DNA of 64,000 nucleotides from an uncultured Lachnospiraceae bacterium (GTDB lineage Bacteria; Bacillota; Clostridia; Lachnospirales; Lachnospiraceae). The stretch is taken from contig CANCYR010000003.1 in assembly GCA_947382355.1 (NCBI GenBank), positions 52,139 through 116,138 of the forward strand, written 5' to 3'. This document shows positions 81 through 15,048 of the stretch, one piece after another (position 1 is the first letter of the stretch; each line of letters starts with the position of its first letter). The notes under the pieces are model-generated. The model was not told where the DNA came from, ran no database searches, and worked only from the letters and a program-made list of their open reading frames with translations. Both the position numbers and the translations under genes were made by a program.

Positions 81-3000
81 ATGAAGAAAAATGTAATAAA
101 GCAATGGTTAAGTATTTTTCTGGCGGCAGCTGTATTGGTGAACGGTTCTGCCTGTGATTTTTCCGGAACGGTAAATGCTACCATGACGGATTATGAAATA
201 GAAGAAGGAATTGATGAAACATCTGTATCGGAGAACAGTTCTATAAATACAGATGAAGCATCTGAAGACAATGTCATAGAGGATGAAGATGTTCTGGAGG
301 AACCGGGACTCATACAGGATTCAGATAAAAGCTCCGGAGTATATTATAATACTGGAAGCAATATGACCGACTTCCGCGATGAAACCATTTATTTTGTTAT
401 GACTACCAGATTTTATGACGGAGACACTTCCAATAATGTACAGTGCTGGGACGGCAAGGATAAAAACGGCGAAAGCGACCCGCCCTGGAGAGGGGATTTT
501 AAGGGGTTGATTGAAAAGCTGGATTATATTAAGGCATTGGGCTTTACTGCAGTCTGGATTACTCCCGTTGTAAAAAATGCCAGCGGATATGATTACCATG
601 GCTATCATGCCATCAACTTTAAAGAAGTGGACCCCAGATACGAATCCGATGACTGCACTTACGAGGATTTGATTGAAGCGGTGCATGAAAGAGGCATGAA
701 AATCATTCAGGACGTAGTATTTCAGCATACCGGCAACTGGGGAGAAGAAAATCTGTATCCTATGTTTACCAAGTCGGAGACCAATCTGGACACGACTGCC
801 TGTATGCAGAGGAATATGAGCATGGCATGGGATCCCAATTATGAAACATTTATGCCGGAGCATGAAAGAGGTGCTAAACAGCTTCGTGACAGGCTGAAGC
901 TGATGAACGCGGATTCGGATGCCGGCACCAAATATGATATGAACGATATTTATCATCATGAAGGCTTTGTAGGAAGCTCTTTTGAGCAGCCAATCGTACA
1001 GTACGGGTCTATCCATTATGCGGACTGTATGGATTTAAATACAGAAAATCCAAAGGTATACCATTATCTGGTAGATGCGTACAGCGATTATATCCGGATG
1101 GGAGTGGATGCTTTTCGTGTGGATACGGTAAAGCATATTTCAAGACTTACATTAAACAAAGCATTTAACCAGCAGTTAAATGATGCTTATAATGAAACCC
1201 ATGGAACAAGCGGCGAAGGAAACTTCTTTATGTTTGGAGAGGTATGTACCAGATGGAGAGGGACATGGAACAGCGGCATTCCCTCTATTTCTACTCCTTT
1301 CTATACATGGAAGGAAACAGAAGACTATGCCTGGGACGACAGTGAAACGGCTGCTGCCAATACAACCAATAATGCTTCTGCAAAGCAGCATTATAATGAC
1401 TATGCAGGAAATACAGACAGCCAGCCTACCAATGACAATGAAAAGCTGCGGGGCAATGAATATCATACTCCGGACCACAGCCAGCATTCGGGCATGAACG
1501 TAATTGACTTTCCTATGCATTGGGCTTTCAAGAGTGCAGGGGAGGCATTTCAGCAGGCATTGGCGGAAGACCCGTATTACAATGATGCCACCTTTAATGT
1601 TACGTATGTGGATTCCCATGACTACGCGCCGGACAATGCGCCGGAAAATGTACGGTATAACGGCTCTACGGAGCAGTGGGCGGAAAATCTTTCCCTGCTT
1701 TTTACCTTCCGTGGAATTCCGTGTATTTATTATGGTTCTGAGGTAGAATTCCAAAAAGGAGAGCTGATTGACCAGGGACCCAACATTCCCCTTGCTGAAT
1801 CCGGCAGGGCATACTTTGGCGATTATATTGAAGGAAGCGTGGATGTAGTAAATTTTGCAAGATACACAAATGCAACAGGAAAAATGGCGGAAACTTTGAA
1901 TCATCCATTATCTCTTCATATCCAAAGGCTGAACAGGCTGCGTGCCTCCGTTCCGGCTTTAAGGAAAGGACAGTATTCCACAGAAGGCTGCAGCGGAAGC
2001 TTTGCATATAAGAGACGTTATACGGATGAAAATACGGATAGCTTTGCACTGATTGCCTTAACCAGCGATGCTACCTTCAGCGGAATTCCTAATGGCACTT
2101 ATGTGGATGCCATTACCGGCGATACAAAGAATGTTACGGGGGGAACCCTCAGCACATCCGGTATTAAGGGACAAGGCGATTTACGGGTTTATGTATTGAA
2201 TACGGACAAAACAAAGGCTCCCGGCATGATTGACGGAAAGAGCGCATATATGTCAGGCGGTACGGATAAGGTTGAACTGATACCGGATGAAGGCGGAAGC
2301 GAATCCATACCGGCAACAGGCATTACCCTTGATAAAAGCTCTGCAAATCTGGACCTTGGAGGGACAGCAGTATTTACAGCAACTATTGCACCTTCCGATG
2401 CTACCAATAAGAGAGTTATCTGGTCTTCTGATAAGGAAACAGTGGCAAAAGTAAACAGCAAAGGAACAGTTACTGCGGTAGGTGAGGGAACTGCAAAGAT
2501 TACGGCGAAAACTTCAAATGGACATTCTGCAACTGCTACGGTAACAGTAACGGCATCTGGAATCAAGGTGACGGGAGTGACGGTAAATCCTCAGTCAGCC
2601 AGCATAAATGAAGGGGAAACACTGCAATTGAGTGCGTCTGTGACCCCATCTAATGCAGATCCCAAATATGCTGCCCTTACATGGCAATCCAGCAATACAA
2701 AAGTAGCAACGGTTGACCAGACGGGACTGGTAACGGCAAAGAAGCAGGGAACTGCCATTATAACAGCGCAGACAGCATATTTTGGCAAGTCCGCAGAGGC
2801 AGTAATCAATGTGGAAGGACCTAAGATTAACTTTTTAGACGGGGATGCAGTTTATTTTGAGAAGCCTTCCGGCTGGGGCTCAGTCAAGGCATATTTCTGG
2901 ACAGATTCACCTAAATGGGATAACGGATGGCCGGGTGAAGAAATGCAGGTTGTAAATGAAAGTGCAGGAATATACGGCATTAAGCTTCCGGCAGGAAAAT

Positions 3001-4946
3001 CTGCAGCGGACTTAAAGGTTATCTTTACCGACGGAGGAAGCCAGACAGATGACTTAAAAATAGTTGTAAACGGCTATTATGATAGTACAGGATATATAAG
3101 GACCCTGGATCCAAATGATAAGGGAGACATACCGAATATTTCGAAAAATATCAGCGTTTCCTTTGCAAATCCGGGAGAAACATATGTTTATGACGGAACG
3201 GAAAAGAAACCGGACGTTATGGTAAAAGCGGACACAACAGTTTTGACAATGGGAAAGGATTATATCGTGCGCTATATGAATAATGTAAGCGCAGGCAGCG
3301 AAAACTCACAGGCATCGGCTCCAACGGTAATTGTTACAGGAATTGGCAGCTATACTGGAAAAATAAACAAAAACCTGACTTTTACAATTGAGCCTAAGAC
3401 GATTGTGGAAAGCAATGTATCCATAGCTGCCGGAGCCCATACTTACACCGGAAAACCCATTACTCCAAATGTATCGGTTATGGCTGGGGGAACTGTTCTG
3501 GTAAAAGATGTAGATTATGAAATTACTTATAGCAATAACATAAACGCAGGAAATGCAGAAGTAGTTGTAAAAGGATTATCCAATTATACCGGAACAGTGC
3601 AAAAGGAATTTACAATAGGAAAGGCAGAAATACCCAAGGGAGCTCCTCAAAGTGAAATGACGGCAGCTGCCGGACTGAAGGTGTCGGACGTGTATCTGGG
3701 AAGTGGCTGGGAATGGTCTGCTTCTGACAGAGATACTCTGATTGAAGAAGGAGAGACGGTTTTAGCAACTGCTGAATACACCGGCACAGACAAGGATAAT
3801 TATCGTATTCTTAACGTACAGGTTTTGCTCAGGGGCATTAACTGTACCCATGAGGATTCTTCCAAACACAAGATAGAGGGAGCCATAGAGGCAACCTGTA
3901 CCACTGACGGCTACAGCGGGGATAAGATCTGCACCAACTGTCAGACAAAGATTGAAGCCGGGAGAATCATACAGGCAACAGGACATATGTGGGAGAGTAC
4001 CCCTCGCATCGATAAAGCGGCTACCTGTACCATGGCTGGAAGCAAATCCGTTCATTGCAGCAAATGTGATGAAACAAAGGATAAGGGCATCGTTCCGGCA
4101 CTGGGGCATACAGGCGGAAGGGCCACCTGCAGCTCACAGGCAAAATGCGTCAGATGTAAGGAACCGTATGGAACATTTGGCAATATTCATACCTGGGATG
4201 GGGGAAAAGTGACAAAGGCTCCGACAGCAGCAGAGGATGGTGTAAGAACCTATACCTGTACGGAATGTAAAATAGAAACGAAGACAGAAGTGATTCCAAA
4301 GCTTGGCGGAGGCAGTGGAACAGGCAGTGGAACAGGCGGAGGCACTGAAACAGGCAGCAGCCTGAAGAAAGGAGATGCCGTAAAGGATACCGCCTCAAAT
4401 GCAACATACAAAGTTACAAGTGCGGATGCTTCCGGGAAAACAGTGGAATATACAGCACCGGTAAAGGCTGCAAAGACCGTGAAAATCCCAAAAGAAATTG
4501 TTATAAAGGGAAATACCTATAAGGTTACATCCATTGCAGGTAATGCATTTAAAAATAACAAGACAATTCAAACTCTAAAAATAGGCGGCAATGTAAAAAC
4601 CATTGGCAAAAGTGCATTTTCCGGATGCAGCAGGCTAAAGAAGGTAACGCTTTCTTCAGGTACTGCAACCATTGGAAATAACGCATTCTATAAATGCACC
4701 AAGCTTACAAGCATTACCATCCCCTCCAAAGTGAGCAAGATAGGAAGCAAAGCATTTTATGGCTGTAAGAAACTAAAGAAAATTACGATAAAGACTTCGA
4801 AGTTAACGAGTAAAAAGGTTGGAAGCAAGGCATTTAAGGGCATTGCAGCAAAAGCTACGATTAAAGTCCCCAAAAAGAAGCTGACAGCTTATAAAAAGCT
4901 TTTAAAGTCAAAAGGGGTTGGAACAAAAGCAAAGATTAAAAAGTAA
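81..4946 (+). CDS. Secreted multidomain GH13 alpha-amylase (1621 aa): signal peptide, acidic linker, GH13 catalytic domain, two Big_2-like Ig domains, CBM25/26-like module, MBG-like repeats, Cys/His repeat units, BspA-type LRR, Lys-rich tail
   Basis: Track ORF 21..4946. I moved the start to ATG 81 (MKKNVIKQWLSIFLAAAVLV..., hydrophobic signal sequence), just downstream of the SD AAAGGAGGG. GH13 conserved regions are present: I DVVFQHTG, II GVDAFRVDTVKHI, III FMFGEVC, IV YVDSHDY. Big_2-like segments are ITLDKSSANLDLGGTAVFTATI... and VTVNPQSASINEGETLQLSASV.... A starch-binding-like segment reads AVYFEKPSGWGSVKAYFWTD..GWPGEEM. The C-terminal module is shared with the next two genes. Confidence 0.88.
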   Translation: MKKNVIKQWLSIFLAAAVLVNGSACDFSGTVNATMTDYEIEEGIDETSVSENSSINTDEASEDNVIEDEDVLEEPGLIQDSDKSSGVYYNTGSNMTDFRDETIYFVMTTRFYDGDTSNNVQCWDGKDKNGESDPPWRGDFKGLIEKLDYIKALGFTAVWITPVVKNASGYDYHGYHAINFKEVDPRYESDDCTYEDLIEAVHERGMKIIQDVVFQHTGNWGEENLYPMFTKSETNLDTTACMQRNMSMAWDPNYETFMPEHERGAKQLRDRLKLMNADSDAGTKYDMNDIYHHEGFVGSSFEQPIVQYGSIHYADCMDLNTENPKVYHYLVDAYSDYIRMGVDAFRVDTVKHISRLTLNKAFNQQLNDAYNETHGTSGEGNFFMFGEVCTRWRGTWNSGIPSISTPFYTWKETEDYAWDDSETAAANTTNNASAKQHYNDYAGNTDSQPTNDNEKLRGNEYHTPDHSQHSGMNVIDFPMHWAFKSAGEAFQQALAEDPYYNDATFNVTYVDSHDYAPDNAPENVRYNGSTEQWAENLSLLFTFRGIPCIYYGSEVEFQKGELIDQGPNIPLAESGRAYFGDYIEGSVDVVNFARYTNATGKMAETLNHPLSLHIQRLNRLRASVPALRKGQYSTEGCSGSFAYKRRYTDENTDSFALIALTSDATFSGIPNGTYVDAITGDTKNVTGGTLSTSGIKGQGDLRVYVLNTDKTKAPGMIDGKSAYMSGGTDKVELIPDEGGSESIPATGITLDKSSANLDLGGTAVFTATIAPSDATNKRVIWSSDKETVAKVNSKGTVTAVGEGTAKITAKTSNGHSATATVTVTASGIKVTGVTVNPQSASINEGETLQLSASVTPSNADPKYAALTWQSSNTKVATVDQTGLVTAKKQGTAIITAQTAYFGKSAEAVINVEGPKINFLDGDAVYFEKPSGWGSVKAYFWTDSPKWDNGWPGEEMQVVNESAGIYGIKLPAGKSAADLKVIFTDGGSQTDDLKIVVNGYYDSTGYIRTLDPNDKGDIPNISKNISVSFANPGETYVYDGTEKKPDVMVKADTTVLTMGKDYIVRYMNNVSAGSENSQASAPTVIVTGIGSYTGKINKNLTFTIEPKTIVESNVSIAAGAHTYTGKPITPNVSVMAGGTVLVKDVDYEITYSNNINAGNAEVVVKGLSNYTGTVQKEFTIGKAEIPKGAPQSEMTAAAGLKVSDVYLGSGWEWSASDRDTLIEEGETVLATAEYTGTDKDNYRILNVQVLLRGINCTHEDSSKHKIEGAIEATCTTDGYSGDKICTNCQTKIEAGRIIQATGHMWESTPRIDKAATCTMAGSKSVHCSKCDETKDKGIVPALGHTGGRATCSSQAKCVRCKEPYGTFGNIHTWDGGKVTKAPTAAEDGVRTYTCTECKIETKTEVIPKLGGGSGTGSGTGGGTETGSSLKKGDAVKDTASNATYKVTSADASGKTVEYTAPVKAAKTVKIPKEIVIKGNTYKVTSIAGNAFKNNKTIQTLKIGGNVKTIGKSAFSGCSRLKKVTLSSGTATIGNNAFYKCTKLTSITIPSKVSKIGSKAFYGCKKLKKITIKTSKLTSKKVGSKAFKGIAAKATIKVPKKKLTAYKKLLKSKGVGTKAKIKK

Positions 4947-4992: not shown

Positions 4993-7900
4993 ATGAAGCA
5001 AAGAAAAGCAATGAAGGCAGTATCCCTGTTTATGGCATTTATTCTGGTATTTACTACCAGTGCATGGTCTCAGGCTTTGGAAGCAGAGGCGGTTTTTGCA
5101 GAGCAGGATGCTTTGACAGATAATATGGAAGAAGCCCCGGAGCAATCCGGGGCTGAAGGAGAAGCTGAAGCTGCGGAAGAATCCGCAGATAGTCTGGAGA
5201 CGGAAACAGAAGATGGGCAGGAAGCTTCGCAAGAGCAGATGGAGCCGGATGAATCGGAAGAAAGTGAAGAGCCGGAGGAGGAAGACGAAGACGGGGTAGA
5301 AAATCCGGATGATTTGCTGGAAGAGGATACCATAGATGAGTCGGATATGTCAGGAGAGACCACGATTGTAAAAACAGGTTCTCCGGAGCTTAGGGACAAG
5401 AAATTTTCCTGGGACAATGCAACTGTGTATTTTGTTCTGACAGACCGTTTCCTGAATGGAGATAAATCAAACGACCATTCCTATGGCAGGGGGTTAAAAG
5501 AAAACAGCAGTTCCATGGTGGACGGGCTTGATACCTATACAAATCCGGGAACCTGGCATGGCGGGGATTTAAAAGGTCTGACCCAGAAGGTGGAAGAGGG
5601 ATATTTTGATGACCTTGGTGTAAATGCCATCTGGATTACAGCGCCTTATGAGCAGGTACATGGCTATACATCGGCAAATATACAAAGCAATAATGCAAAT
5701 CAGTATCCGGATCCGGCCAGAGGAGGATTTCCTTATTACTCTTATCATGGATACTGGGCTCTTGATTTTAGCCAGATAGATGCCAATATGGGTTCAGAGG
5801 CAGATTTTAAAAATTTTGTGGACAGCTGTCATGAGCATGGCATAAGAGTAGTTATGGACGTGGTAATGAACCATGTGGGCTATACTACCATGCAGGATGC
5901 CGTCGATTATGGATTTGACGGTACGTTAAAGGGAAATTGGAGAGAATATTACTACGGAAATTCTACCTATCTGATGGGTGGAGACCCGGAATCCTCGAAT
6001 TTCTGGGAGCAGCAGTCAGAGCTTTGGAGGACGAAATGGTGGGGACCCGGCTTTGTGCGGGCATCTTATCCGGGCTATACTGCAGCAGGCGGCGACGATT
6101 ATCATATGAGCTTAAGCGGGCTTCCCGACGTGGTTACAGAATCTTCGGCTTCAGCTGTGCCAACGCCTCCGCTTCTTGTAAATAAGTGGACGCAGGAAGG
6201 AATACTTGCCAAGGAACAGGGGGAACTGGATGCATTTTTCCAGAAAACCGGATATAGTAAACAGCCACGTTATTATATTATTAAATGGCTTACGGACTGG
6301 GTTCGGGAATACGGAGTGGATGGCTTCCGCTGTGATACCGCAAAGCACGTGGATAAAGATGCATGGAAGGATTTAAAGACGGAAGCAAATAAAGCATTGA
6401 AGGAATGGCGGAGCAATAATCCTAATGCGGCAGGCAGCCAGTGGACGGATGATTTCTGGATGACGGGAGAAGCCTGGGGACATGGGCCGGGAAAAAGTGA
6501 GTATTTTACAGAAGGCGGCTTTGATTCCATGATTAATTTCCAGTTCAATAAGTCCGGAGACCCGGCAGGAATGGAAGGAACATACAGTGGTTATGCGGCA
6601 GATATCAATAGTGATCCAGAGTTTAATGTGTTAAGTTATATTTCTTCCCATGATGACAGCGACAGCACAATGGGCGTGTGGAGGGCTACAGATGATAAAA
6701 ATATGGACCTTGGAACCTGTCTGCTGTTATCACCGGGCGGTGTGCAGATTTATTATGGAAATGAAATAAACAGGGGACTTGGATGGGTGGACTTCTTTAC
6801 CGGAAATGATTATCTGGACCAAAGATTTCGTACAGATATGGACTGGAATGGTGTCACCGGAGCAAAGGCTTCTGTATTGAAGCACTGGCAGAAGGTAGGA
6901 CAATTCCGCAGCAACCATCTGTCTGTAGGGGCAGGACAGCACGAAAAATTGTCTGATTCCCCATATACCTTCAGCAGGACGTATCATTTAGAAGAGGATG
7001 ATGAGGACAAGGTAGTAGTCGCACTGCCAAATACAGCAGGAACCTTCAGTGTTCCGATAGGCTCTGTCTTTGAGGAGGGAGAGACCCTTACCGATGCTTA
7101 TTCAGGAAATAAGTATGAGGTGAAGAATGGCAGCGTATCCGTTACCTGCGACAGCAATGGAGTTATTTTGCTGCAGGGCTCCGGCATTGTGAAAGCAAGC
7201 GTTAATGCAAAGACAAAAAATAACCAGACTACTTATTCAAGCGATACTTTTGATATTACATTAAGGGCAAATAAGGCAGCCGATACATATTATTCCATAA
7301 ATGGAGGAACAAAGCAGCCTTATGAAAACGATCAGGTGATTACTATCGGAGGAGATACGGCATATGGTGAGGAAACTACTCTTACACTGACAGGTACTTC
7401 CATGGACGATGGTTCTGCCCTCACGAAGACCATTAAGTATAAAAGAGGTCCGGAACCTCTTATCAGTGATGGAATCTTTTATATCAAGGTGAAGAAAAGT
7501 GATTTTTCAAGTCCGCCCAGTATTTATGTATATACTGAAACTACTCCTGCGCAGGAGCCTGCCGGGAAATGGCCGGGAGCAACGCTGACAGAGGATGAGG
7601 ATTCGGATTACTATTCTTATAAAAATGAAAATATTACTTCAAGTATGCGGGTTATTTTTATACAGGGTTCCTGGAGAAGCACTCCGGAGGGAGCAGACGG
7701 ACTGGCAGCACAGGGTTGTATGCTTTATGACAAGAGCAGCAATACATTGTCAGAACTGCCTTCCGGCGAGCCCGGAAAGGTGACCATTAATTATAAGAAA
7801 GAAAATGGAGAAATCATAAAATCCATTTATAGAGTAGGAGTAGTAGGAAAGCCATATAAAACATATCCGGCTGTAGTCAGCGGATATACTTTAAAGACGA

Positions 7901-9822
7901 CACCTGCCAATGCAACAGGTACATTTGCAGAGAATGTAACCGTAGATTATATTTACAGCACAGGGGATGCTCCTGTAGGCGGTATAAGTATTGCAGCATT
8001 TACGGCAAGTCCTCTTAGCGGCAGCGCATATAAAGGAAGCCTTGTGAATCTTGAAGCGGCTGCAACAGGAGGAACGGGCGCTTTGCAGTATAAGTTTACT
8101 GCACGGCTGGGAAATGGCAGTGAGAGCACCATACAGGATTACAGGACAATCAATAATGTTTCATGGACTCCCCAGACAGCCGGAAGATATACCCTGAAGG
8201 TATACGTGAAGGATTCTGCCAATAAGATTGCGGAGAAAACAATAGCAAATTATGAGGTAAAAGAAAATTCCTCGCCAAATCCGTCGCCAAATCCGTCGGA
8301 TATCCAGATTGCCTTTGCCAATGAGACTTTAAGATATGTTTATAATGGCAGTCAGCAGAGGCCGGGCGTGGTCGTAAGAGAAGGGACAAAGACCTTGACA
8401 GAAGGAATGGACTACAGTCTGTCCTATTATAACTGTATCAATGCTGCTGACAAGGATTCACAAAATGCTCCAACGATTATCGTTTCAGGCAAGGGCGATT
8501 ATACAGGAAAAATTATAAATGTGAAACTGACCTTTACGATAGAGAAGGCGAATATACCAAAAGGCGCTCCAGAGAGTACAATGACGGTAGCAGCCGGTCC
8601 GGTTTCAAACTTAGCGTTGAATGCGGGATGGGAGTGGGCGGATTCTGATAAAAATGTTATCATTCAGGTTGATGAGACCATTTCTGTAATGGCTGTTTAC
8701 AACGGAACAGATAAGGAAAATTATAAGACCACAAGCATGACAGTAAGTCTTACAGGCATTTCCTGTGACCATCCGGTTTCAGAGCGGGAGACCATAGTGG
8801 CAATAGCTCCAACCTGTACCCAGCCGGGTCGTAAGGACGTTGTTTGTAAAAGATGTCATACAACCATGGATGAAGGTGAAGTTTTACGGGCATTAGGTCA
8901 TACAGGCGGAACAGCAACCTGTTCCTCACAGGCAACTTGTGGAAGGTGCGGCGGAAAGTACGGTCCTTTTGATAATACGAAGCATGCAAATATAGTTCTT
9001 CAGAATAAAAAAGCAGCAAATTGCCAGCAGGCAGGATACACGGGAGATGCTGTATGTCAGGATTGCGGCTCCATGATTTCTTCCGGAAAGCCTGTTGCAA
9101 AAACCGGGCATATATGGGATGCCGGGAAAGTGACGAAGGCGCCTACAGAAACAGCAAATGGAGTCAGAACATATACCTGCACTGCATGTAAGACGGCAAC
9201 TAGAACAGAATCAATTCCAAAGATAGCAGGAAACGGATTAAATACAGGGGATTCTGTCATTGATGCTTCTACCAAGACAGTCTATAAAATTACCAAGACA
9301 AGTTCCACAGTGAAGCAGGTAGAGTTTGTATTGTCTTCCGGTTCAGCTAAGAATGTGACTATACCGAATAACGTAGTCCTAAAAGGCACTACCTATCAGG
9401 TAACCTCCATTGCGGACAATGCGTTTAAAAATAATAAGACCATTCAAACTGTGAAAATTGGAAGCAATGTAAAAACAATTGGAGAAAATGCATTTTCCGG
9501 CTGTAGCAGGCTAAAGAAGGTAACCCTTTCCAAGAACACTGTAACAATTGGAAGCAAGGCATTTTATAAATGTACGAAACTTACAAATATAACGATTCCT
9601 TCCAAAGTAAGTAAGATTGGAAGCAAGGCATTTTATGGCTGTAAGAAGTTGAAAAAGATTACAATTAAAACAACCAAGTTGACAAGCAAAAAGGTTGGCA
9701 GTCAGGCATTTAAAGGGATTGTCACAAAAGCATCCATTAAAGTTCCCAAAAAGAAGCTGGCTGCATATAAGAAGCTCTTAAAAGCAAAAGGGGTCAGCTC
9801 CAAAGCGAAAATAAAAAAATAA
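4993..9822 (+). CDS. Secreted multidomain GH13 alpha-amylase, MalS-like catalytic core (1609 aa), with poly-acidic linker, CBM-like module, MucBP-like segment and the shared MBG/Cys-His/LRR/Lys-tail C-terminal module
   Basis: Track ORF 4918..9822. Start placed at ATG 4993, 3 nt after AAAGGAGAAAG, giving the signal peptide MKQRKAMKAVSLFMAFILVFTTSAWS. GH13 regions: I DVVMNHVG, II VDGFRCDTAKHV, III FWMTGEAWGHG, IV YISSHDD. The MucBP-like segment is GKVTINYKKENGEIIKS...GYTLKT...VTVDYIY. Confidence 0.88.
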   Translation: MKQRKAMKAVSLFMAFILVFTTSAWSQALEAEAVFAEQDALTDNMEEAPEQSGAEGEAEAAEESADSLETETEDGQEASQEQMEPDESEESEEPEEEDEDGVENPDDLLEEDTIDESDMSGETTIVKTGSPELRDKKFSWDNATVYFVLTDRFLNGDKSNDHSYGRGLKENSSSMVDGLDTYTNPGTWHGGDLKGLTQKVEEGYFDDLGVNAIWITAPYEQVHGYTSANIQSNNANQYPDPARGGFPYYSYHGYWALDFSQIDANMGSEADFKNFVDSCHEHGIRVVMDVVMNHVGYTTMQDAVDYGFDGTLKGNWREYYYGNSTYLMGGDPESSNFWEQQSELWRTKWWGPGFVRASYPGYTAAGGDDYHMSLSGLPDVVTESSASAVPTPPLLVNKWTQEGILAKEQGELDAFFQKTGYSKQPRYYIIKWLTDWVREYGVDGFRCDTAKHVDKDAWKDLKTEANKALKEWRSNNPNAAGSQWTDDFWMTGEAWGHGPGKSEYFTEGGFDSMINFQFNKSGDPAGMEGTYSGYAADINSDPEFNVLSYISSHDDSDSTMGVWRATDDKNMDLGTCLLLSPGGVQIYYGNEINRGLGWVDFFTGNDYLDQRFRTDMDWNGVTGAKASVLKHWQKVGQFRSNHLSVGAGQHEKLSDSPYTFSRTYHLEEDDEDKVVVALPNTAGTFSVPIGSVFEEGETLTDAYSGNKYEVKNGSVSVTCDSNGVILLQGSGIVKASVNAKTKNNQTTYSSDTFDITLRANKAADTYYSINGGTKQPYENDQVITIGGDTAYGEETTLTLTGTSMDDGSALTKTIKYKRGPEPLISDGIFYIKVKKSDFSSPPSIYVYTETTPAQEPAGKWPGATLTEDEDSDYYSYKNENITSSMRVIFIQGSWRSTPEGADGLAAQGCMLYDKSSNTLSELPSGEPGKVTINYKKENGEIIKSIYRVGVVGKPYKTYPAVVSGYTLKTTPANATGTFAENVTVDYIYSTGDAPVGGISIAAFTASPLSGSAYKGSLVNLEAAATGGTGALQYKFTARLGNGSESTIQDYRTINNVSWTPQTAGRYTLKVYVKDSANKIAEKTIANYEVKENSSPNPSPNPSDIQIAFANETLRYVYNGSQQRPGVVVREGTKTLTEGMDYSLSYYNCINAADKDSQNAPTIIVSGKGDYTGKIINVKLTFTIEKANIPKGAPESTMTVAAGPVSNLALNAGWEWADSDKNVIIQVDETISVMAVYNGTDKENYKTTSMTVSLTGISCDHPVSERETIVAIAPTCTQPGRKDVVCKRCHTTMDEGEVLRALGHTGGTATCSSQATCGRCGGKYGPFDNTKHANIVLQNKKAANCQQAGYTGDAVCQDCGSMISSGKPVAKTGHIWDAGKVTKAPTETANGVRTYTCTACKTATRTESIPKIAGNGLNTGDSVIDASTKTVYKITKTSSTVKQVEFVLSSGSAKNVTIPNNVVLKGTTYQVTSIADNAFKNNKTIQTVKIGSNVKTIGENAFSGCSRLKKVTLSKNTVTIGSKAFYKCTKLTNITIPSKVSKIGSKAFYGCKKLKKITIKTTKLTSKKVGSQAFKGIVTKASIKVPKKKLAAYKKLLKAKGVSSKAKIKK

Positions 9823-9936: not shown

Positions 9937-12900
9937 ATGAAAAAATTCCAGCAAAAAAGCAGATTGCTGAGTATTTTTCTTATTTGTGTTCTGGTAACGG
10001 CTTCTCTCCGCATGTGGCCTGCCATGGAGGTACACGGGGAGAAAGGAGAAGGTACAGTATATGCAAAACGTACCTTTGACAGCAATTACGACACGCAAAA
10101 TGCTTATAACGGCAATGATCTGGGATGTACCTATACGCCGCAAAAGACTACGTTCAAGGTATGGACTCCGGAGGCAAGCTCTGTTGTGCTGTGCAGATAT
10201 GCAAAGGGCAATGGAGGCAGCCCCATAGAGGAAGTGCCCATGACAAAAGGCGACAAAGGTGTGTGGAGCGTTACGATTTCAGGAGATATCGTGAATACAT
10301 ACTATACTTACAAGGTAACTGTCAATGGAAGTACCAAAGAGGCGGTGGACATTTATGCCAAGGCTGCAGGCGTCAATGGAGACCGGGCAATGGTAGTGGA
10401 TTTAGACAGTACGGACCCGGTTAACTGGGATAAGAATTATCAAAGGGAAAAAACACTTCTAAGCGATATCATTGTATGGGAGGTTCATATCAGGGACTTT
10501 TCCATTGATGCCAGCTCGGGCGTGTCTCAGGAAAACCGGGGAAAATATAAGGCGTTTACAGAAGATACTACAGTAAACGGAGAAGGCAGGGTGGCTTCCT
10601 GCGTCAATTACTTAAAGGAGCTTGGGGTGACCCATGTGCAGATTCTTCCCATGTATGACTATGCATCGGTGGAAGAAACGGCGGTTACCACCACTCCCGG
10701 CAGCAATTACAACTGGGGGTATGATCCGAAAAATTACAATGTGCCAGAGGGTTCTTATTCCAGCAATCCTTATGACGGAAACGTGCGTATCACAGAAATG
10801 AAGGAAATGATTCAGGCATTGCATGATGCAGGGATTAAGGTAATCATGGACGTGGTATATAACCATACCTATGATACGGCGGATTCTAATTTCAACAAAA
10901 TCATGCCGGACTATTATTATAAAATCAACAGCGACCTTTCCTATAATAATCAGTCGGGCTGCGGCAATGCCACCAGAAGCAAAAGCGCAATGTACCGGAA
11001 ATTCATGATAGATTCTGTTTCCTATTGGGCGGAGGAATATAATCTGGACGGCTTCCGGTTTGATTTGATGGGAATCCATGATTTGACAACCATGAATCAA
11101 ATCAGGAAAACCTTAGATGACAAATTCGGCAAGGACACCATTGTTCTTTACGGAGAGGGCTGGACAGCCGCAGAGCATGATACTGACAGCGCCTATAAGT
11201 CAAATGAAAGCAAGCTGGATTACGGCATTGGATATTTTAACGACCAGATCAGGGATGCCATCAAGGGCGAGCATAAGTACGATGATAATCATACTATCGG
11301 TCTGGTGCAGGCTAATTATTTTTCCGGCTCATTTATGGAACCGGGTGCAAAATGGCCTAACAATATATTTGGCGGAATCATGGGTTCAGTAGGGTATACC
11401 AGCGGCCAATGGGGCGAGTGGCGGCCTTTCTGGTCCAAATCCTCCAATTGCTCGTTGAGCTATACGTCGGCTCATGATAATCTGACACTGTGGGATAAGC
11501 TGGCAGGTGAAGTGGGCAAGAATTTTAACTCCATGGACGAGCGCATGTTAAAAATGAACAAAATGGCGGGAAGCGTGGTTTTGGTTTCCAAGGGCGGAGT
11601 ATTCATGCAGGCAGGTGAAGAATTTGCAAGGACGAAATATGGCGATGACAACAGCTATAGCTCCCCGGATTCCACAAATAAAATCGACTGGAACAGGGTG
11701 AATACCTATTCCGCCATCCAGAAATATTATCAGGGAATGATAAGCATCCGGAAGGCATTTTCCGGTTTCCGTTCCATACTTACAAGAAGCGGTGATAACT
11801 GGAACCCGGATAATAATAACCTGACATGGATCAGCAAGGAGGAGCTGGGGCTCATTGCATTTTATGAAACCAATAACGTGCCCGGAGAATGGGACCGGAT
11901 AGCGGTGCTGATCAACAATGCAACATCTAATAAGACAGTGAACTTAACCGGTTCCGATAGCTGGGTTATCATAGCGGACGGCAATACGGCTGGACTTGAA
12001 AAGATAAAAGAAACCGGCTCAAATGTGGAAGTACCCGGAAAATCCGTAGTGGTGGCAGTGCCAAAGGGAACCTTTGAGGCCAATAATGTCTCGGCAAATA
12101 AGCCGCCAGTCATTAGTGCTTCTAATTCCTTTGAGGCTGTGGCAGGAGAAAGCCTGTCATTTTCCGTGAAGGTTTCCGACCCAGATGGCGACAAAATAAC
12201 CATAACTGCTGTAGGAGTGCCAAATGGCGCTTCCTTTGATACAGCTTCCGGCACCTTCTTATGGGAAAAGCCTGTTGCAGGAAGCTATACTCTTATTATA
12301 ACAGCAAGCGATGGAAAGGCTGAGACAACTAAAAACATTAACATTACTGTAATGGAGAAAGAGGCTCTGGCAAAGAAAAAGCTGGAAAGCGCCCTTTCAA
12401 AAGCAAGAGAAAAGCTGGCCGCTGCTCAGGGAGCCCCGTCTGATTATGAAGCTGCTGCAGTTTCGGATTTACAGACTGTCATTTCAGAGGCGGAAGGACT
12501 TCTTCAGTCCGCCGGCACGCCGGAAGTATATGAAAGCACAGCAGAGGATCTGGAAGCTGCCATAAAAGCATGTGTATCTTTAAAGGCAAATCCCATTATC
12601 CGTATAAAGGCGGAGGGCTGGCAAAACCCTACTGTATATGTATGGAAGGGAAGCGGAACGAACGAGGTAAAGCTGGCTGGAGCCTGGCCGGGAACCGGAC
12701 TGACGGAAAAAGATGCAGAAGGCTATTATATATTTGAGCTGCCGGAGGGAACTACTGATTATTCCGTGATTGTAAACGACGGTGCAGCAGGCACCGCAAC
12801 ACAGACTGCGGACATTGCCGGCATTGCAGGCAACGTTGATATTACAGTCACTTCCTTTACCGGAAAAACCTGTACATTTGACAGAAAGGACCGTGAAGTG

Positions 12901-15048
12901 GGAACAGGCCCGGTTGAAATAGATAAAACTCTGCTGGCTTCACAAATAGAAAAAGCGGCACAGGTAATGCGGGATAATCCCAACAGTCCGTGGCTGTCGG
13001 AGCTGAATACCTGTCTGACGGAAGCAAAAGCGGTTAATGAAAATTCACAGGCAACTCAGGTGATGATTAACCAGAAAGTAAGAGCATTGAAAAAATCCAT
13101 TCGTGCAGTGGAAGAAAATAGTGAGCCTCCCCAGTCGGATATTAAGATTTCCTTTGCGGATGAGTCCGCAGTATATATTTATGACGGTACTCCAAAGGAA
13201 CCGGATATACTCGTAAAGGATGGAGAAAGGATTTTAACAGAAGGGACGGATTATAAGGTATCGTATCTGAACAACATCAACGCCTGCTCACTGCAGACTT
13301 CTGATGCAAATGCCCCCACAGTTATTGTTGTGGGAATCAACAGTTATGCCGGAAAAATAGAAAAGAATAACAGGCTGGTATTTACGATTGAGCGAAAGAC
13401 CCTTACAGACAGCAATGTATCTATTGCCGGAGCTTATACTTACACCGGAAATCCTGTTATTCCTGACGTAACGGTAACAGATGGAGCGGCAGAGCTTGAA
13501 AACGAAGAAGACTATGAAATGGACTGCAGCAACAATATCAATGCGGGAACAGCTGTTTTGACTATAACCGGAATCGGAAATTATACGGGAACAGTACAAA
13601 AGGAATTTACAATAGAAAAAGCGGCCATACCTGCAGGGGCGCCGGAAGCGGAGATGACAGTGGCTGTGGGACCGTTGAGTAATCTGCGGTTAAGCGGCGG
13701 ATGGGAATGGTCGGAAGCCGATAAGGATAAAGTAATAGAAGATCAGCAGACACTGGATGTAACGGTAGTATATGCAGGAGAAGACAGGGAGAATTATCAG
13801 GTCACAAGCATTGCAGTGAGAATTACCGGCATTGACTGCCAGCATGAAGAAGAATATATACAGATAAAAGATGCGAAAGATGCAACCTGTACGTCAGACG
13901 GGTACAGCGGAGATAAGATTTGTGTCAATTGTAAAACACTGATTGAGCAGGGTGCGCCTGTCATTGCAACGGGACATCAATGGGAAACTGCTCCAAGGAT
14001 CGATAAGGAAGCAACCTGTATAAAAGAAGGAAAACAGTCCATTCATTGCAGTCAATGTGATGAAGTAAAAGAAGAAAAGGTCATTCCCGCAACGGGGCAT
14101 CAGCGAAATACTCCAACAGTGGGGAAAGAACCTACATGTATAGCAGCAGGAGAACAGCTGATTGAGTGCATTCACTGCGGTGAAAAGCTGGATATGGAAA
14201 TCATTCCGGCATTGGGTCATACGGGAGGAACTGCAACCTGCTGTGCACAGGCAGTCTGCACCAGATGCAGCCAGCCATATGGAAGCTATAGCGATATTCA
14301 TAACTGGGATGCCGGAGTCGTAACAAAAACGGCTACAGCAACGGAAGATGGCATCAGGACTTATACTTGTAAAGACTGCCATGAAACAAGAGTAGAAGTG
14401 ATTCCAAAGACCGGAAGCGGCACTGGTCCTGTACATGGCGGTGATGACACACAGGGAGGCGGACTGAAGGCAGGAGATTCAGTAAAGGATTCCGTATCCA
14501 AGGCATCCTATAAGGTTACCAGAGCAGATGCCAATGTAAAAACAGTAGCTTATACAGCTCCTGCTTCCAAATCAAAAACAGTAACCATACCAAATACAAT
14601 TAATGTAAACGGCACAGATTATCAGGTGACCTCCATTGCATCAGGCGCATTTAAAAATAATAAAACCATTACCACGATTAAGCTGGGAAGCAATATAAAA
14701 ACAATTGGCAGCAGCGCATTTTACGGCTGCAGCAGGCTTAAAAAGGTAACGTTGTCAAAGAATCTGACCCAGATAGACAGCAAGGCATTTTACAAATGCA
14801 CAAGCCTCACCGGCATTACCATACCTTCCAAAGTAAGCAAGATAGGAAGTAAGACATTTTACGGCTGCAAAAAGCTGAAAAAGATTACAATCAAAACATC
14901 TAAGCTTACAAGCAAAAAGGTAGGGAGCAAAGCATTCAAAGGCATTGCCTCCAAAGCAACCATTAAGGTTCCAAAGAAAAAGCTTGCTTCTTATAAGAAG
15001 CTTTTGAAAGCAAAAGGAGTGGGGTCCAAGGCTGTTATTAAAAAATAG
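9937..15048 (+). CDS. pulA: Secreted type I pullulanase (GH13, 1703 aa) with N-terminal CBM48/PUD-like domain, Ig-like domain, coiled linker, CBM25/26-like module and the shared MBG/Cys-His/LRR/Lys-tail C-terminal module
   Basis: SD AAAAGGAGGAAG lies upstream of ATG 9937, and the protein starts with a signal peptide (MKKFQQKSRLLSIFLICVLVTASL). The pullulanase signature YNWGYDPKNYNVPEGSYS is present. GH13 regions: I DVVYNHT, II LDGFRFDLMG, III LYGEGW, IV YTSAHDN. Confidence 0.9.
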   Translation: MKKFQQKSRLLSIFLICVLVTASLRMWPAMEVHGEKGEGTVYAKRTFDSNYDTQNAYNGNDLGCTYTPQKTTFKVWTPEASSVVLCRYAKGNGGSPIEEVPMTKGDKGVWSVTISGDIVNTYYTYKVTVNGSTKEAVDIYAKAAGVNGDRAMVVDLDSTDPVNWDKNYQREKTLLSDIIVWEVHIRDFSIDASSGVSQENRGKYKAFTEDTTVNGEGRVASCVNYLKELGVTHVQILPMYDYASVEETAVTTTPGSNYNWGYDPKNYNVPEGSYSSNPYDGNVRITEMKEMIQALHDAGIKVIMDVVYNHTYDTADSNFNKIMPDYYYKINSDLSYNNQSGCGNATRSKSAMYRKFMIDSVSYWAEEYNLDGFRFDLMGIHDLTTMNQIRKTLDDKFGKDTIVLYGEGWTAAEHDTDSAYKSNESKLDYGIGYFNDQIRDAIKGEHKYDDNHTIGLVQANYFSGSFMEPGAKWPNNIFGGIMGSVGYTSGQWGEWRPFWSKSSNCSLSYTSAHDNLTLWDKLAGEVGKNFNSMDERMLKMNKMAGSVVLVSKGGVFMQAGEEFARTKYGDDNSYSSPDSTNKIDWNRVNTYSAIQKYYQGMISIRKAFSGFRSILTRSGDNWNPDNNNLTWISKEELGLIAFYETNNVPGEWDRIAVLINNATSNKTVNLTGSDSWVIIADGNTAGLEKIKETGSNVEVPGKSVVVAVPKGTFEANNVSANKPPVISASNSFEAVAGESLSFSVKVSDPDGDKITITAVGVPNGASFDTASGTFLWEKPVAGSYTLIITASDGKAETTKNINITVMEKEALAKKKLESALSKAREKLAAAQGAPSDYEAAAVSDLQTVISEAEGLLQSAGTPEVYESTAEDLEAAIKACVSLKANPIIRIKAEGWQNPTVYVWKGSGTNEVKLAGAWPGTGLTEKDAEGYYIFELPEGTTDYSVIVNDGAAGTATQTADIAGIAGNVDITVTSFTGKTCTFDRKDREVGTGPVEIDKTLLASQIEKAAQVMRDNPNSPWLSELNTCLTEAKAVNENSQATQVMINQKVRALKKSIRAVEENSEPPQSDIKISFADESAVYIYDGTPKEPDILVKDGERILTEGTDYKVSYLNNINACSLQTSDANAPTVIVVGINSYAGKIEKNNRLVFTIERKTLTDSNVSIAGAYTYTGNPVIPDVTVTDGAAELENEEDYEMDCSNNINAGTAVLTITGIGNYTGTVQKEFTIEKAAIPAGAPEAEMTVAVGPLSNLRLSGGWEWSEADKDKVIEDQQTLDVTVVYAGEDRENYQVTSIAVRITGIDCQHEEEYIQIKDAKDATCTSDGYSGDKICVNCKTLIEQGAPVIATGHQWETAPRIDKEATCIKEGKQSIHCSQCDEVKEEKVIPATGHQRNTPTVGKEPTCIAAGEQLIECIHCGEKLDMEIIPALGHTGGTATCCAQAVCTRCSQPYGSYSDIHNWDAGVVTKTATATEDGIRTYTCKDCHETRVEVIPKTGSGTGPVHGGDDTQGGGLKAGDSVKDSVSKASYKVTRADANVKTVAYTAPASKSKTVTIPNTINVNGTDYQVTSIASGAFKNNKTITTIKLGSNIKTIGSSAFYGCSRLKKVTLSKNLTQIDSKAFYKCTSLTGITIPSKVSKIGSKTFYGCKKLKKITIKTSKLTSKKVGSKAFKGIASKATIKVPKKKLASYKKLLKAKGVGSKAVIKK

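Follow-up and report, generated by a model that had tools for sequence, protein, structure and literature searches.

What is the repeat of Cys- and His-containing units carried by the amylolytic enzymes of a gut anaerobe, and how would such a repeat hold a metal? The question was raised by a 64,000-nucleotide stretch of DNA from an uncultured Lachnospiraceae bacterium (assembly GCA_947382355.1, contig CANCYR010000003.1, positions 52,139 to 116,138 of the forward strand; the window, hereafter), in which three large head-to-tail open reading frames (ORFs) on the + strand are each a GH13 gene, called here amylase 1, amylase 2 and pullulanase. An earlier reading of the letters, the original prediction, had proposed that the repeat may consist of metal-binding beads. 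Judged by profile matches, the repeat belongs to a very large, unnamed family whose first description, in 2025, came from the IgA protease of a gut bacterium, and the evidence given below indicates that it likely forms a Cys3His metal site that is built between units rather than within a bead. We consider it probable that the units are three-stranded sheets joined by shared metal sites into a stiff stalk that holds the enzyme off the cell, where the metal, the rigidity and the stalk are what we infer. New here are the link between the GH13 arrays and the ZBD domains of the IgA protease, an estimate of how large and how widespread the family is, and sequence statistics in support of the shared-site, or chain-link, architecture.

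Units of the repeat and their order

Positions 3843-4305 of the window (+ strand) read through without stops as CTHEDSSKHKIEGAIEATCTTDGYSGDKICTNC...TYTCTECKIETKTEVIPKL, within the amylase 1 ORF. It was found that an array of four to five Cys/His units is present in all three GH13 genes of the window and in an upstream paralog, and that in each protein every Cys in the region from about residue 1280 to about residue 1490 belongs to a single array. The presence of the repeat in the three GH13 proteins, as originally proposed, was confirmed by the ORF translations, by alignment and by a unit hidden Markov model (HMM) scoring far above chance; built from the long units of the window, it recovered every single unit with E=1e-12 to 1e-18 when the six-frame ORFs of the entire genome were searched. 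The coordinates, the unit counts, the permuted order in amylase 2 and the one extra unit in the pullulanase were likewise borne out by the unit positions and types. The proposed unit length of about 30 amino acids (aa) was not, since the long units have 40-47 aa and the short type has 27-28 aa.

A better register for the unit places the His on the N-terminal side, H-x11-15-C-x5-10-C-x2-C, and the three Cys are referred to below as C1, C2 and C3. The type A unit (40-47 aa) reads H-x11-15-[AP]TC-x3-G-x5-6-C-x2-C-x10-13-GH, the short type B unit (27-28 aa) reads H-TGG-x-ATC-x5-C-x2-C-x10-11-H, and the type C unit (39-40 aa), which is always last and is without C1, reads H-x-WD-x-G-x-VTK-x-[AP]T-[AE]-..G-x-RTYTC-x2-C... 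A lone C-x-H (G-I-x-C-x-H) stands before every array and belongs to the repeat system. The units (U1 to U5) were located as follows, with the pLDDT (predicted local distance difference test) values of the AlphaFold2 (AF2) model of amylase 1 where they apply.

3843..3983, + strand: amylase 1 U1, type A, including the leading C-x-H (C1281 and H1283 in the numbering of protein P0002); AF2 pLDDT 82-97
3984..4106, + strand: amylase 1 U2, type A; predicted strands at model residues 64-67, 75-81 and 87-93; pLDDT 97-98
4107..4187, + strand: amylase 1 U3, type B (H-TGG-x-ATC-x5-C-x2-C-x10-H); pLDDT 92-96
4188..4307, + strand: amylase 1 U4, type C (HxWDxG...), with the first Cys replaced by Ala; predicted strands at model residues 131-134, 142-148 and 155-160
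8764..9228, + strand: amylase 2 array, with U1 (A) at 8764-8898, U2 (B) at 8899-8982, U3 (A) at 8983-9108 and U4 (C) at 9109-9228
13837..14415, + strand: pullulanase array, with U1 at 13837-13974, U2 at 13975-14097 and U3 at 14098-14217 (all type A)
14218-14298 and 14299-14415, + strand: the last two units of the pullulanase array, U4 (B) and U5 (C)

The units are thus ordered A,A,B,C in amylase 1 and A,A,A,B,C in the pullulanase; amylase 2 and the upstream paralog share the order A,B,A,C. Between paralogs, equivalent units have 56-68% identity, whereas all units compared as protein range from 18 to 68%, and the extra pullulanase unit, U3, is nearest to its own neighbour U2 (48% identity). These type orders and identities support the proposal that units were duplicated and shuffled. 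No DNA-level tandem repeat was found in the arrays by Tandem Repeats Finder (TRF), and the duplications and rearrangement of units are therefore old.

Two residues outside the general pattern were seen. There is a Cys-Cys doublet at the C1 position of pullulanase U4 (window 14239-14244; Cys1435-Cys1436 in P0004 numbering), and a second His (His1289 of P0002; SSKH, window 3861-3869) lies six residues past the C-x-H in amylase 1 and its orthologs, a His that is not found in amylase 2 or the pullulanase.

Ligand conservation, predicted fold and the proposed two-unit sites

About 6,000 units from 162 proteins were gathered with a unit HMM. Over 3,748 units, the His was conserved at 100%, C1 at 97%, the Gly at 97%, C2 at 100%, C3 at 98% and the C-side His at 86%, and the residues between the ligands were variable; in a separate count, the N-side His was present at 262 of 266 CxxC sites. 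The number of Cys per unit is odd. The original description of three Cys plus a terminal His per unit has the right stoichiometry, with the reservations that the terminal unit is without the first Cys and that the His is better placed on the N-side. The idea of a metal site is strengthened by a Cys3His ligand set conserved at 97-100%, by the odd number of Cys, and by the Cys/His swaps, the lack of DsbA, BdbD and VKOR homologs and the predicted Zn sites of the homologous IgA protease segments (PMC12237041, PMC12415215) described below, although its packaging in self-contained beads did not hold up.

If each unit bound its own metal as a self-contained CCCH zinc knuckle, the units would be independent beads on flexible links. 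Three Cys and one His per unit have the right stoichiometry for this, and there are weak zinc-ribbon matches in Pfam (DZR, E=0.07; Zn_ribbon_11, E=0.08). The predicted fold speaks against it. AF2 modelled pullulanase U1-U3 with a pLDDT of 92.7 and a predicted template modelling score (pTM) of 0.65 (alignment of 52 three-unit homolog pieces), and the whole amylase 1 array with a pLDDT of 91.6 and a pTM of 0.59 (36 homologous pieces), every unit type in the latter model being above 90. In these models, with strands assigned by DSSP, each long unit is predicted to have three antiparallel strands with up-and-down connectivity and no helix. C1 is placed in the connection between β1 and β2, C2 ends β2, C3 lies in the β2-β3 turn, and the flanking His residues are placed a few residues before β1 and after β3. 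Because an up-and-down sheet has one of these turns at each end, C1 cannot join the CxxC of its own unit. By the same topological argument, C1 would lie near the C-terminal GH, that is, at the start of the next unit, where it would adjoin the next unit's CxxC turn. The pTM of 0.59-0.65 for such elongated multi-unit models also argues for a fixed inter-unit geometry rather than for flexible links.

The ends of the arrays were then used as a second source of evidence. The end of an array was defined strictly, by about 110 Cys-free residues beyond it; a looser definition (a gap of >62 aa between detected units) gave weak contrasts. With the strict definition the following values were obtained.

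True first units (n=81): C1 kept in 94%; Cys or His at -2 of the own His in 44% (plus 10% at -3)
Middle units (n=4,347): C1 kept in 97%; Cys or His at -2 in 2%
True last units (n=48): C1 kept in 8%; Cys or His at -2 in 2%

The Fisher p values for these end effects were 1e-59 (loss of C1) and 2e-36 (Cys or His at -2); since related units are not independent, both values are inflated. Within arrays, internal units that lack C1 and precede a long unit had an extra Cys or His within three residues of the boundary His (<=3) in 38 of 63 cases (60%), whereas with C1 present such an extra residue was found in 61 of 3,638 (1.7%). The sequences ...IPALGHDHT... and ...QTCDHDY... are examples of this compensation. 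All three window arrays and the array of the upstream paralog open with C-x-H and close with a C1-less unit; the window arrays contain no internal C1-less unit, and the two end rules are obeyed exactly.

C1 is lost where there is no downstream partner, an equivalent is added where there is no upstream one, and it can be replaced by His, so that it behaves as the fourth ligand of a two-unit metal site. Together, the end effects, the compensation at unit boundaries and the predicted strand topology support the interpretation that the Cys/His ligand quartet meets at the interface of two units. The loss of C1 specifically in array-terminal units, the extra Cys or His specifically before array-initial units, and the compensation at the i/i+1 boundary for a C1 lost in unit i are not what independent beads predict, and in the literature on the IgA protease the sites are placed at subdomain interfaces (PMC12237041). 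A site made of the N-side His and C1, C2 and C3 of one unit was dropped after the topology and end-effect analysis, and we regard self-contained knuckles as quite unlikely.

In the proposed shared site, C1 of unit i (in the β1-β2 turn), the boundary His and the C-x2-C of unit i+1 (in the β2-β3 turn) would form one tetrahedral site. At the start of the array, the upstream Cys would be supplied by the Cys two residues before the first His (G-I-x-C-x-H), and at its end the last unit, having no partner, would have lost C1. The metal at the shared sites would most likely be structural Zn(II). The quartets predicted for amylase 1 (P0002 numbering) are the following.

Sites 1 and 2: C1281/H1283/C1310/C1313 and C1299/H1328/C1352/C1355
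Sites 3 and 4: C1342/H1369/C1382/C1385 and C1376/H1396/C1419/C1422

These four quartets use all 12 Cys of the array. Four sites are predicted in amylase 2 and five in the pullulanase, and 17 over the four enzymes. The chain-link rule thus predicts the residues of every site and would explain both the lone C-x-H and the last unit without C1.

Two known zinc folds were considered and rejected. In classical zinc ribbons (the TFIIS C-terminal domain, Rpb9/RPA12 and ribosomal L32/L37a), two CxxC knuckles from one domain provide a Cys4 site. In contrast to zinc ribbons and rubredoxin, the window unit has one knuckle, a lone Cys and a lone His, and a neighbour completes the site. The zinc ribbon was rejected because there is one CxxC per unit and the Pfam scores are below threshold (DZR, 13.7 bits with a cut-off of 27.3; Zn_ribbon_11, 13.0 bits with a cut-off of 24), and the single knuckle per unit likewise disposes of the rubredoxin-like site suggested originally. 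The C2H2 zinc finger (β-β-α, C-x2-4-C...H-x3-5-H) was rejected because the predicted units have no helix; profile matches to PRDM9 and Aart were weak and composition-like, and no single stretch passed.

A second explanation without shared metal sites is that the Cys form disulfides, within or between units, which would stiffen a secreted linker in the absence of any metal. The Cys total per array is even (12, 12 and 16), and extracellular Cys-rich repeats are disulfide-bonded in many organisms. Yet each unit has three Cys and an invariant His, and a His takes the place of a missing Cys, a swap that fits a metal ligand and not a disulfide partner. Searches of the genome, which is 99.8% complete, turned up no homolog of DSBA, Thioredoxin_4 (BdbD-like) or VKOR, whereas the same searches gave matches in control genomes; the organism is a gut Lachnospiraceae anaerobe, to judge by the source names of its orthologs; and the IgA protease has 24 Cys with no disulfide in experimental or predicted structures (PMC12237041). 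With no DsbA or VKOR homolog found, an odd Cys count in each unit, a His that does not vary and Cys positions that can be taken over by His, stapling by disulfides is very unlikely.

The sites might also hold a cofactor other than zinc (Fe, a mitoNEET-type [2Fe-2S] cluster, or Ni/Co), which would make the array responsive to redox state or oxygen. Three Cys and one His are also the ligand set of the CDGSH [2Fe-2S] proteins, the habitat is anoxic and sulfide-rich, and the identity of the metal is not fixed by the sequence. Against this, we know of no extracytoplasmic Fe-S assembly pathway in Firmicutes; the units have no CDGSH motif; the ligands come from two small sheets and are close together, as in structural Zn sites; and relatives interchange Cys3His and Cys2His2, which is typical of Zn sites (PMC12237041). 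Heme c attachment was rejected as well: the residue after C3 is G in 46%, D in 19% and N in 15% (of the 3,748 units), and in the window CxxCH occurs only at amylase 2 U1 and pullulanase U5, that is, in only 2 of 13 units and at a position that is not conserved. Overall, we consider such a cofactor highly improbable.

Relation to the IgA protease and the proposed stalk

Whether the array or the full-length proteins were scanned, no Pfam-A or NCBIfam model matched the units; the match to a characterised Pfam family that had been named as a threat to the novelty of the repeat did not appear. Two unfamiliar accessions of a precomputed annotation, PF26182 and PF26918, were rejected because they are Ig_NUP210_5th and Ig_Eae and lie on the Big_2 region instead of the repeat. 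A single-sequence search of the PDB sequences with a 154-aa piece of the array gave no match. However, the profile A3, made only from the ten long units of the window, matched PDB entry 9qa6_A with E=2e-14 (56.5 bits), over chain stretches 852-881, 939-978 and 1107-1137; the broader profile A1 matched the same chain with E=3e-8. Entry 9qa6 is the M64 IgA protease of Thomasclavelia ramosa (IgAse/ThomasA; PMC12237041). Once the numbering is shifted by about 29 residues, an offset estimated from the construct length, two of the matches coincide with ZBD1 (subdomains I and III) and one with ZBD2 (subdomain III).

The ZBD1 and ZBD2 domains were modelled with AlphaFold3 as chains of three-stranded up-and-down sheets with predicted Zn sites at the subdomain interfaces (PMC12237041). 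The same segments have been named CTD2/CTD4 (PMC12415215) and β-sheet domains β3, 4 and 6 (PMC12402451), and CTD2 was found by SAXS (X-ray scattering at small angles) to be a fully extended rod (PMC12415215). The statement that the repeat has no characterised function is therefore superseded, since the related IgAse domains were described in 2025 as a zinc-binding or periscope stalk, on the strength of prediction and SAXS. A Foldseek search of the PDB with the three-unit model gave no match at E<=1e-3, and therefore no solved PDB structure contains the module.

The window arrays resemble the IgAse ZBDs in that they are homologous by profile, have predicted three-stranded up-and-down sheets chained end to end, and have predicted Cys/His ligands at the junctions. 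In both, a long unit, a short unit and a C1-less terminal unit follow one another, as at the ends of the window arrays, and the module precedes a C-terminal surface anchor; the array position of amylase 1 U3 corresponds to subdomain II of ZBD1 (PMC12237041). They differ in three respects. The IgAse sites are mostly of two His and two Cys, whereas the sites predicted in the window are all Cys3His; the IgAse has 3+2 subdomains split by a β-barrel, whereas the window arrays have four to five uninterrupted units; and the IgAse combines a metalloprotease head with a sortase signal, whereas the window proteins have GH13 amylase or pullulanase heads with an LRR_5/Lys-rich tail.

These likenesses bear on what the array may do. 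The stapled chain would form a stiff rod between the head, composed of the catalytic domain and carbohydrate-binding modules (CBMs), and the LRR_5/Lys-rich cassette. Its length would be about 13-18 nm for 4-5 units, by analogy with the ~110 Å reported for the three subdomains of IgAse ZBD1, and by that analogy it may be enough to span a Gram-positive wall or capsule layer. Such a stalk would project the amylases and the pullulanase from the cell surface.

In the window, the array stands after the catalytic, CBM, Ig-like and ~75-aa repeat blocks and before a Gly/Ser/Thr linker, the LRR_5 module and the Lys-rich tail. More generally, it sits between head domains and a wall or membrane anchor, which is LRR_5 here and SLH, CW_binding_2, a transmembrane (TM) helix or a sortase signal in relatives (PMC12237041). 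The heads and anchors of relatives are unrelated to those of the window: transglutaminase with Big_2 in Anaerostipes hadrus, Flg_new with CW_binding_2, SLH, MBG_2 with a type IX secretion system (T9SS) sorting domain, a C-terminal TM helix, and an M64 protease head. Across the family the copy number ranges from 2 to >100 units. Unrelated heads, a variable copy number and variable positions between the ligands are the signature of a stalk or spacer.

It could be argued that the array is not merely a passive spacer and is instead a binding module for starch or another glycan, for host mucus or for a surface protein. It accompanies CBM26, MucBP and LRR in enzymes that must dock on an insoluble substrate, and additional functions were left open by the PNAS authors (PMC12415215). 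However, the same units are found with transglutaminase, M64 protease, Flg_new adhesin-like repeats and T9SS proteins, in anything from 2 to >100 copies, and the surface positions between the ligands are poorly conserved. One expects as much from a stalk domain, not from a site of specific binding, and we think a binding role unlikely.

The proposed stalk may be compared with other extracellular rods. As in periscope and stalk proteins (SasG/Aap G5-E repeats, Rib), the arrays are predicted to have single-layer β-sheets with no large hydrophobic core and would form a rod beside a wall anchor, and the copy number differs between paralogs (4 vs 5). Canonical periscope repeats are near-identical in DNA, and their copy number varies between strains. 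Periscope proteins sensu Whelan et al. 2021 are reportedly encoded by DNA repeats that are almost the same, and their arrays vary in length as a result. A canonical periscope array was rejected here because there is no TRF repeat in the window arrays and the units are 18-68% identical as protein; the function of the array may nevertheless be periscope-like. In Aap, zinc brings about dimerisation through His/Asp surface sites, whereas intramolecular Cys/His staples are proposed for the window arrays. The shared site also resembles zinc hooks and clasps (the Rad50 hook, the CD4/Lck clasp), in which a tetrahedral Cys/His site is made from two separate structural elements; those join two polypeptide chains, whereas here successive repeats of one chain would be joined, outside the cell. 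Both comparisons have precedents for the IgAse: the interfacial hook/clasp class was cited in PMC12237041, and the likeness of CTD2/CTD4 to periscope proteins was drawn in PMC12415215.

Several points weigh against the stapled stalk as a whole. The stalk role is argued from position and analogy. The zinc of the IgAse is itself predicted, 'pending experimental validation' in the papers, and the finding that the ZBDs are dispensable for catalysis in vitro (PMC12237041) fits a stalk but does not prove one. In terminal units the lost C1 is not always replaced. The first-unit rule is incomplete, because a Cys or His was found at -2 in 44% of true first units and at -2, -3 or -4 combined in about 58%. 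MAFFT placed H1289 in the invariant His column, which makes the first ligand set of amylase 1 ambiguous, and the CC pair of pullulanase U4 has one Cys more than a four-ligand model needs.

The amylolytic cluster and the wider family

The GH13 proteins all have a signal-peptide-like N terminus, as read from their sequences. The genes and the C-terminal module of amylase 1 are the following.

81..4946, + strand: amylase 1 gene (ORF and Pfam matches; called gene of 1621 aa), with, in order, GH13, Big_2 x2, CBM26, unassigned repeats, the Cys/His array, LRR_5 and a Lys-rich tail
4993..9822, + strand: amylase 2 gene (ORF and Pfam matches), with GH13, CBM26, MucBP, Y_Y_Y, the array and LRR_5
9937..15048, + strand: type I pullulanase gene (TIGR02104, E=8e-187), with CBM48, GH13, Big_9, CBM26, the array and LRR_5
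4527..4877, + strand: LRR_5 (BspA-type) module of amylase 1 (PF13306, E=8e-27 and 3e-28), then the Lys-rich C-terminal tail

A fourth GH13 paralog lies directly upstream of the window (contig C3:46431-52115, window base 1 being C3:52139) and encodes about 1,861 aa with Alpha-amylase, CBM26, MucBP and LRR_5, the array in the order given above, and the same Lys-rich tail. Because this paralog carries the array, the amylolytic cluster at this locus comprises four genes rather than three.

The LRR_5 and Lys-rich cassette common to all the paralogs is presumed to retain the proteins at the cell surface. Near-identical C-terminal cassettes are found at approximate window positions 4527-4943, 9400-9819 and 14630-15045, with the tail pattern ...ITIPSKVSKIGSKAFYGCKKLKKITIKT...KVPKKKL..YKK.LK.KG...K.KIKK and no LPXTG motif. 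Other exported proteins of this genome, unrelated to the amylases (C4:55635-58400, C26:1458-4115 and C26:4085-6634), end in the same cassette. It has the look of a common surface-retention module, possibly one that is gene-converted.

On the other side of the array, repeats of about 75 aa precede it at window 3120-3842 in amylase 1 and at equivalent places in amylase 2 and the pullulanase, with the pattern FAN...Y.YDG..K.P.V.V......L..G.DY.V.Y.NN.NAG...V.V.G.GNYTG.....F.I. No Pfam match above threshold was obtained on them, and the name 'MBG-like' that they had been given is not confirmed, as the best match, MBG_3, was below threshold at E=5.4. Perfect 12-bp tandem repeats of 2.2-2.3 copies were found at 4310-4337 (in the GSGT linker right after the amylase 1 array) and at 8272-8298 (in the PNPS linker of amylase 2), and both tracts could be sites of linker length variation.

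Elsewhere in the genome, the unit HMM also matched a Big_2-tailed protein (contig C11), an LRR_5-tailed protein (contig C4) and two further LRR_5 proteins (contig C26). The latter two, C26:1458-4115 and C26:4085-6634, are adjacent, and each has a different short Cys/His subdomain (H.W...W..D...HWH.C....C......YG.H) followed by a single C1-less terminal unit, an arrangement that resembles subdomain II plus subdomain III of IgAse ZBD1. The sequences of these proteins suggest that the Cys/His family has more unit types than the three of the window.

The family is large. In a collection of 5.8 billion proteins, 2,579 proteins of comparable length matched the amylase 1 array at E<=1e-3. The three-unit profile A1, searched against 1.84 billion representatives of clusters at 50% identity, matched 72,480 clusters at E<=1e-3, of which 47,091 reached E<=1e-10 and 18,913 reached E<=1e-30, where the weak matches may include eukaryotic C2H2 arrays, which score marginally. 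The largest matching proteins have up to 7,583 aa and >40 matched three-unit stretches, so that the longest of them probably carry >100 units. The repeat was found in 64 of the 151 sampled genera (42%) of the window's family, which runs counter to the original view that such a secreted domain is out of the ordinary in strict anaerobes, and in 7 of 301 genomes in an even sample of the phylum. Two surveys of fibrillar adhesins (PMC8286594 and PMC9210967) do not mention the repeat.

The module is thus one of the commonest unannotated building blocks in Firmicute surface proteins and marks a gap in the domain databases. Cys is usually scarce in the exported proteins of Gram-positive bacteria, and a family resting on extracellular Cys3His sites would be an exception that makes sense only in anoxic habitats. 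It is conceivable, although we hold it to be improbable, that the arrays are environment-gated staples, and that the rod and the amylolytic display need both a supply of zinc and anoxic surroundings to hold together. If so, the staples would be undone when the host sequesters zinc (calprotectin) or when oxygen or oxidants are present at the mucosa. The family of ~70,000 clusters would then amount to a large pool of extracellular zinc that has gone unrecognised, and to a layer on gut Firmicutes that responds to redox state and zinc. For the bacterium itself, the results suggest that the array locates the catalytic head relative to the wall and that starch degradation could depend on the supply of zinc.

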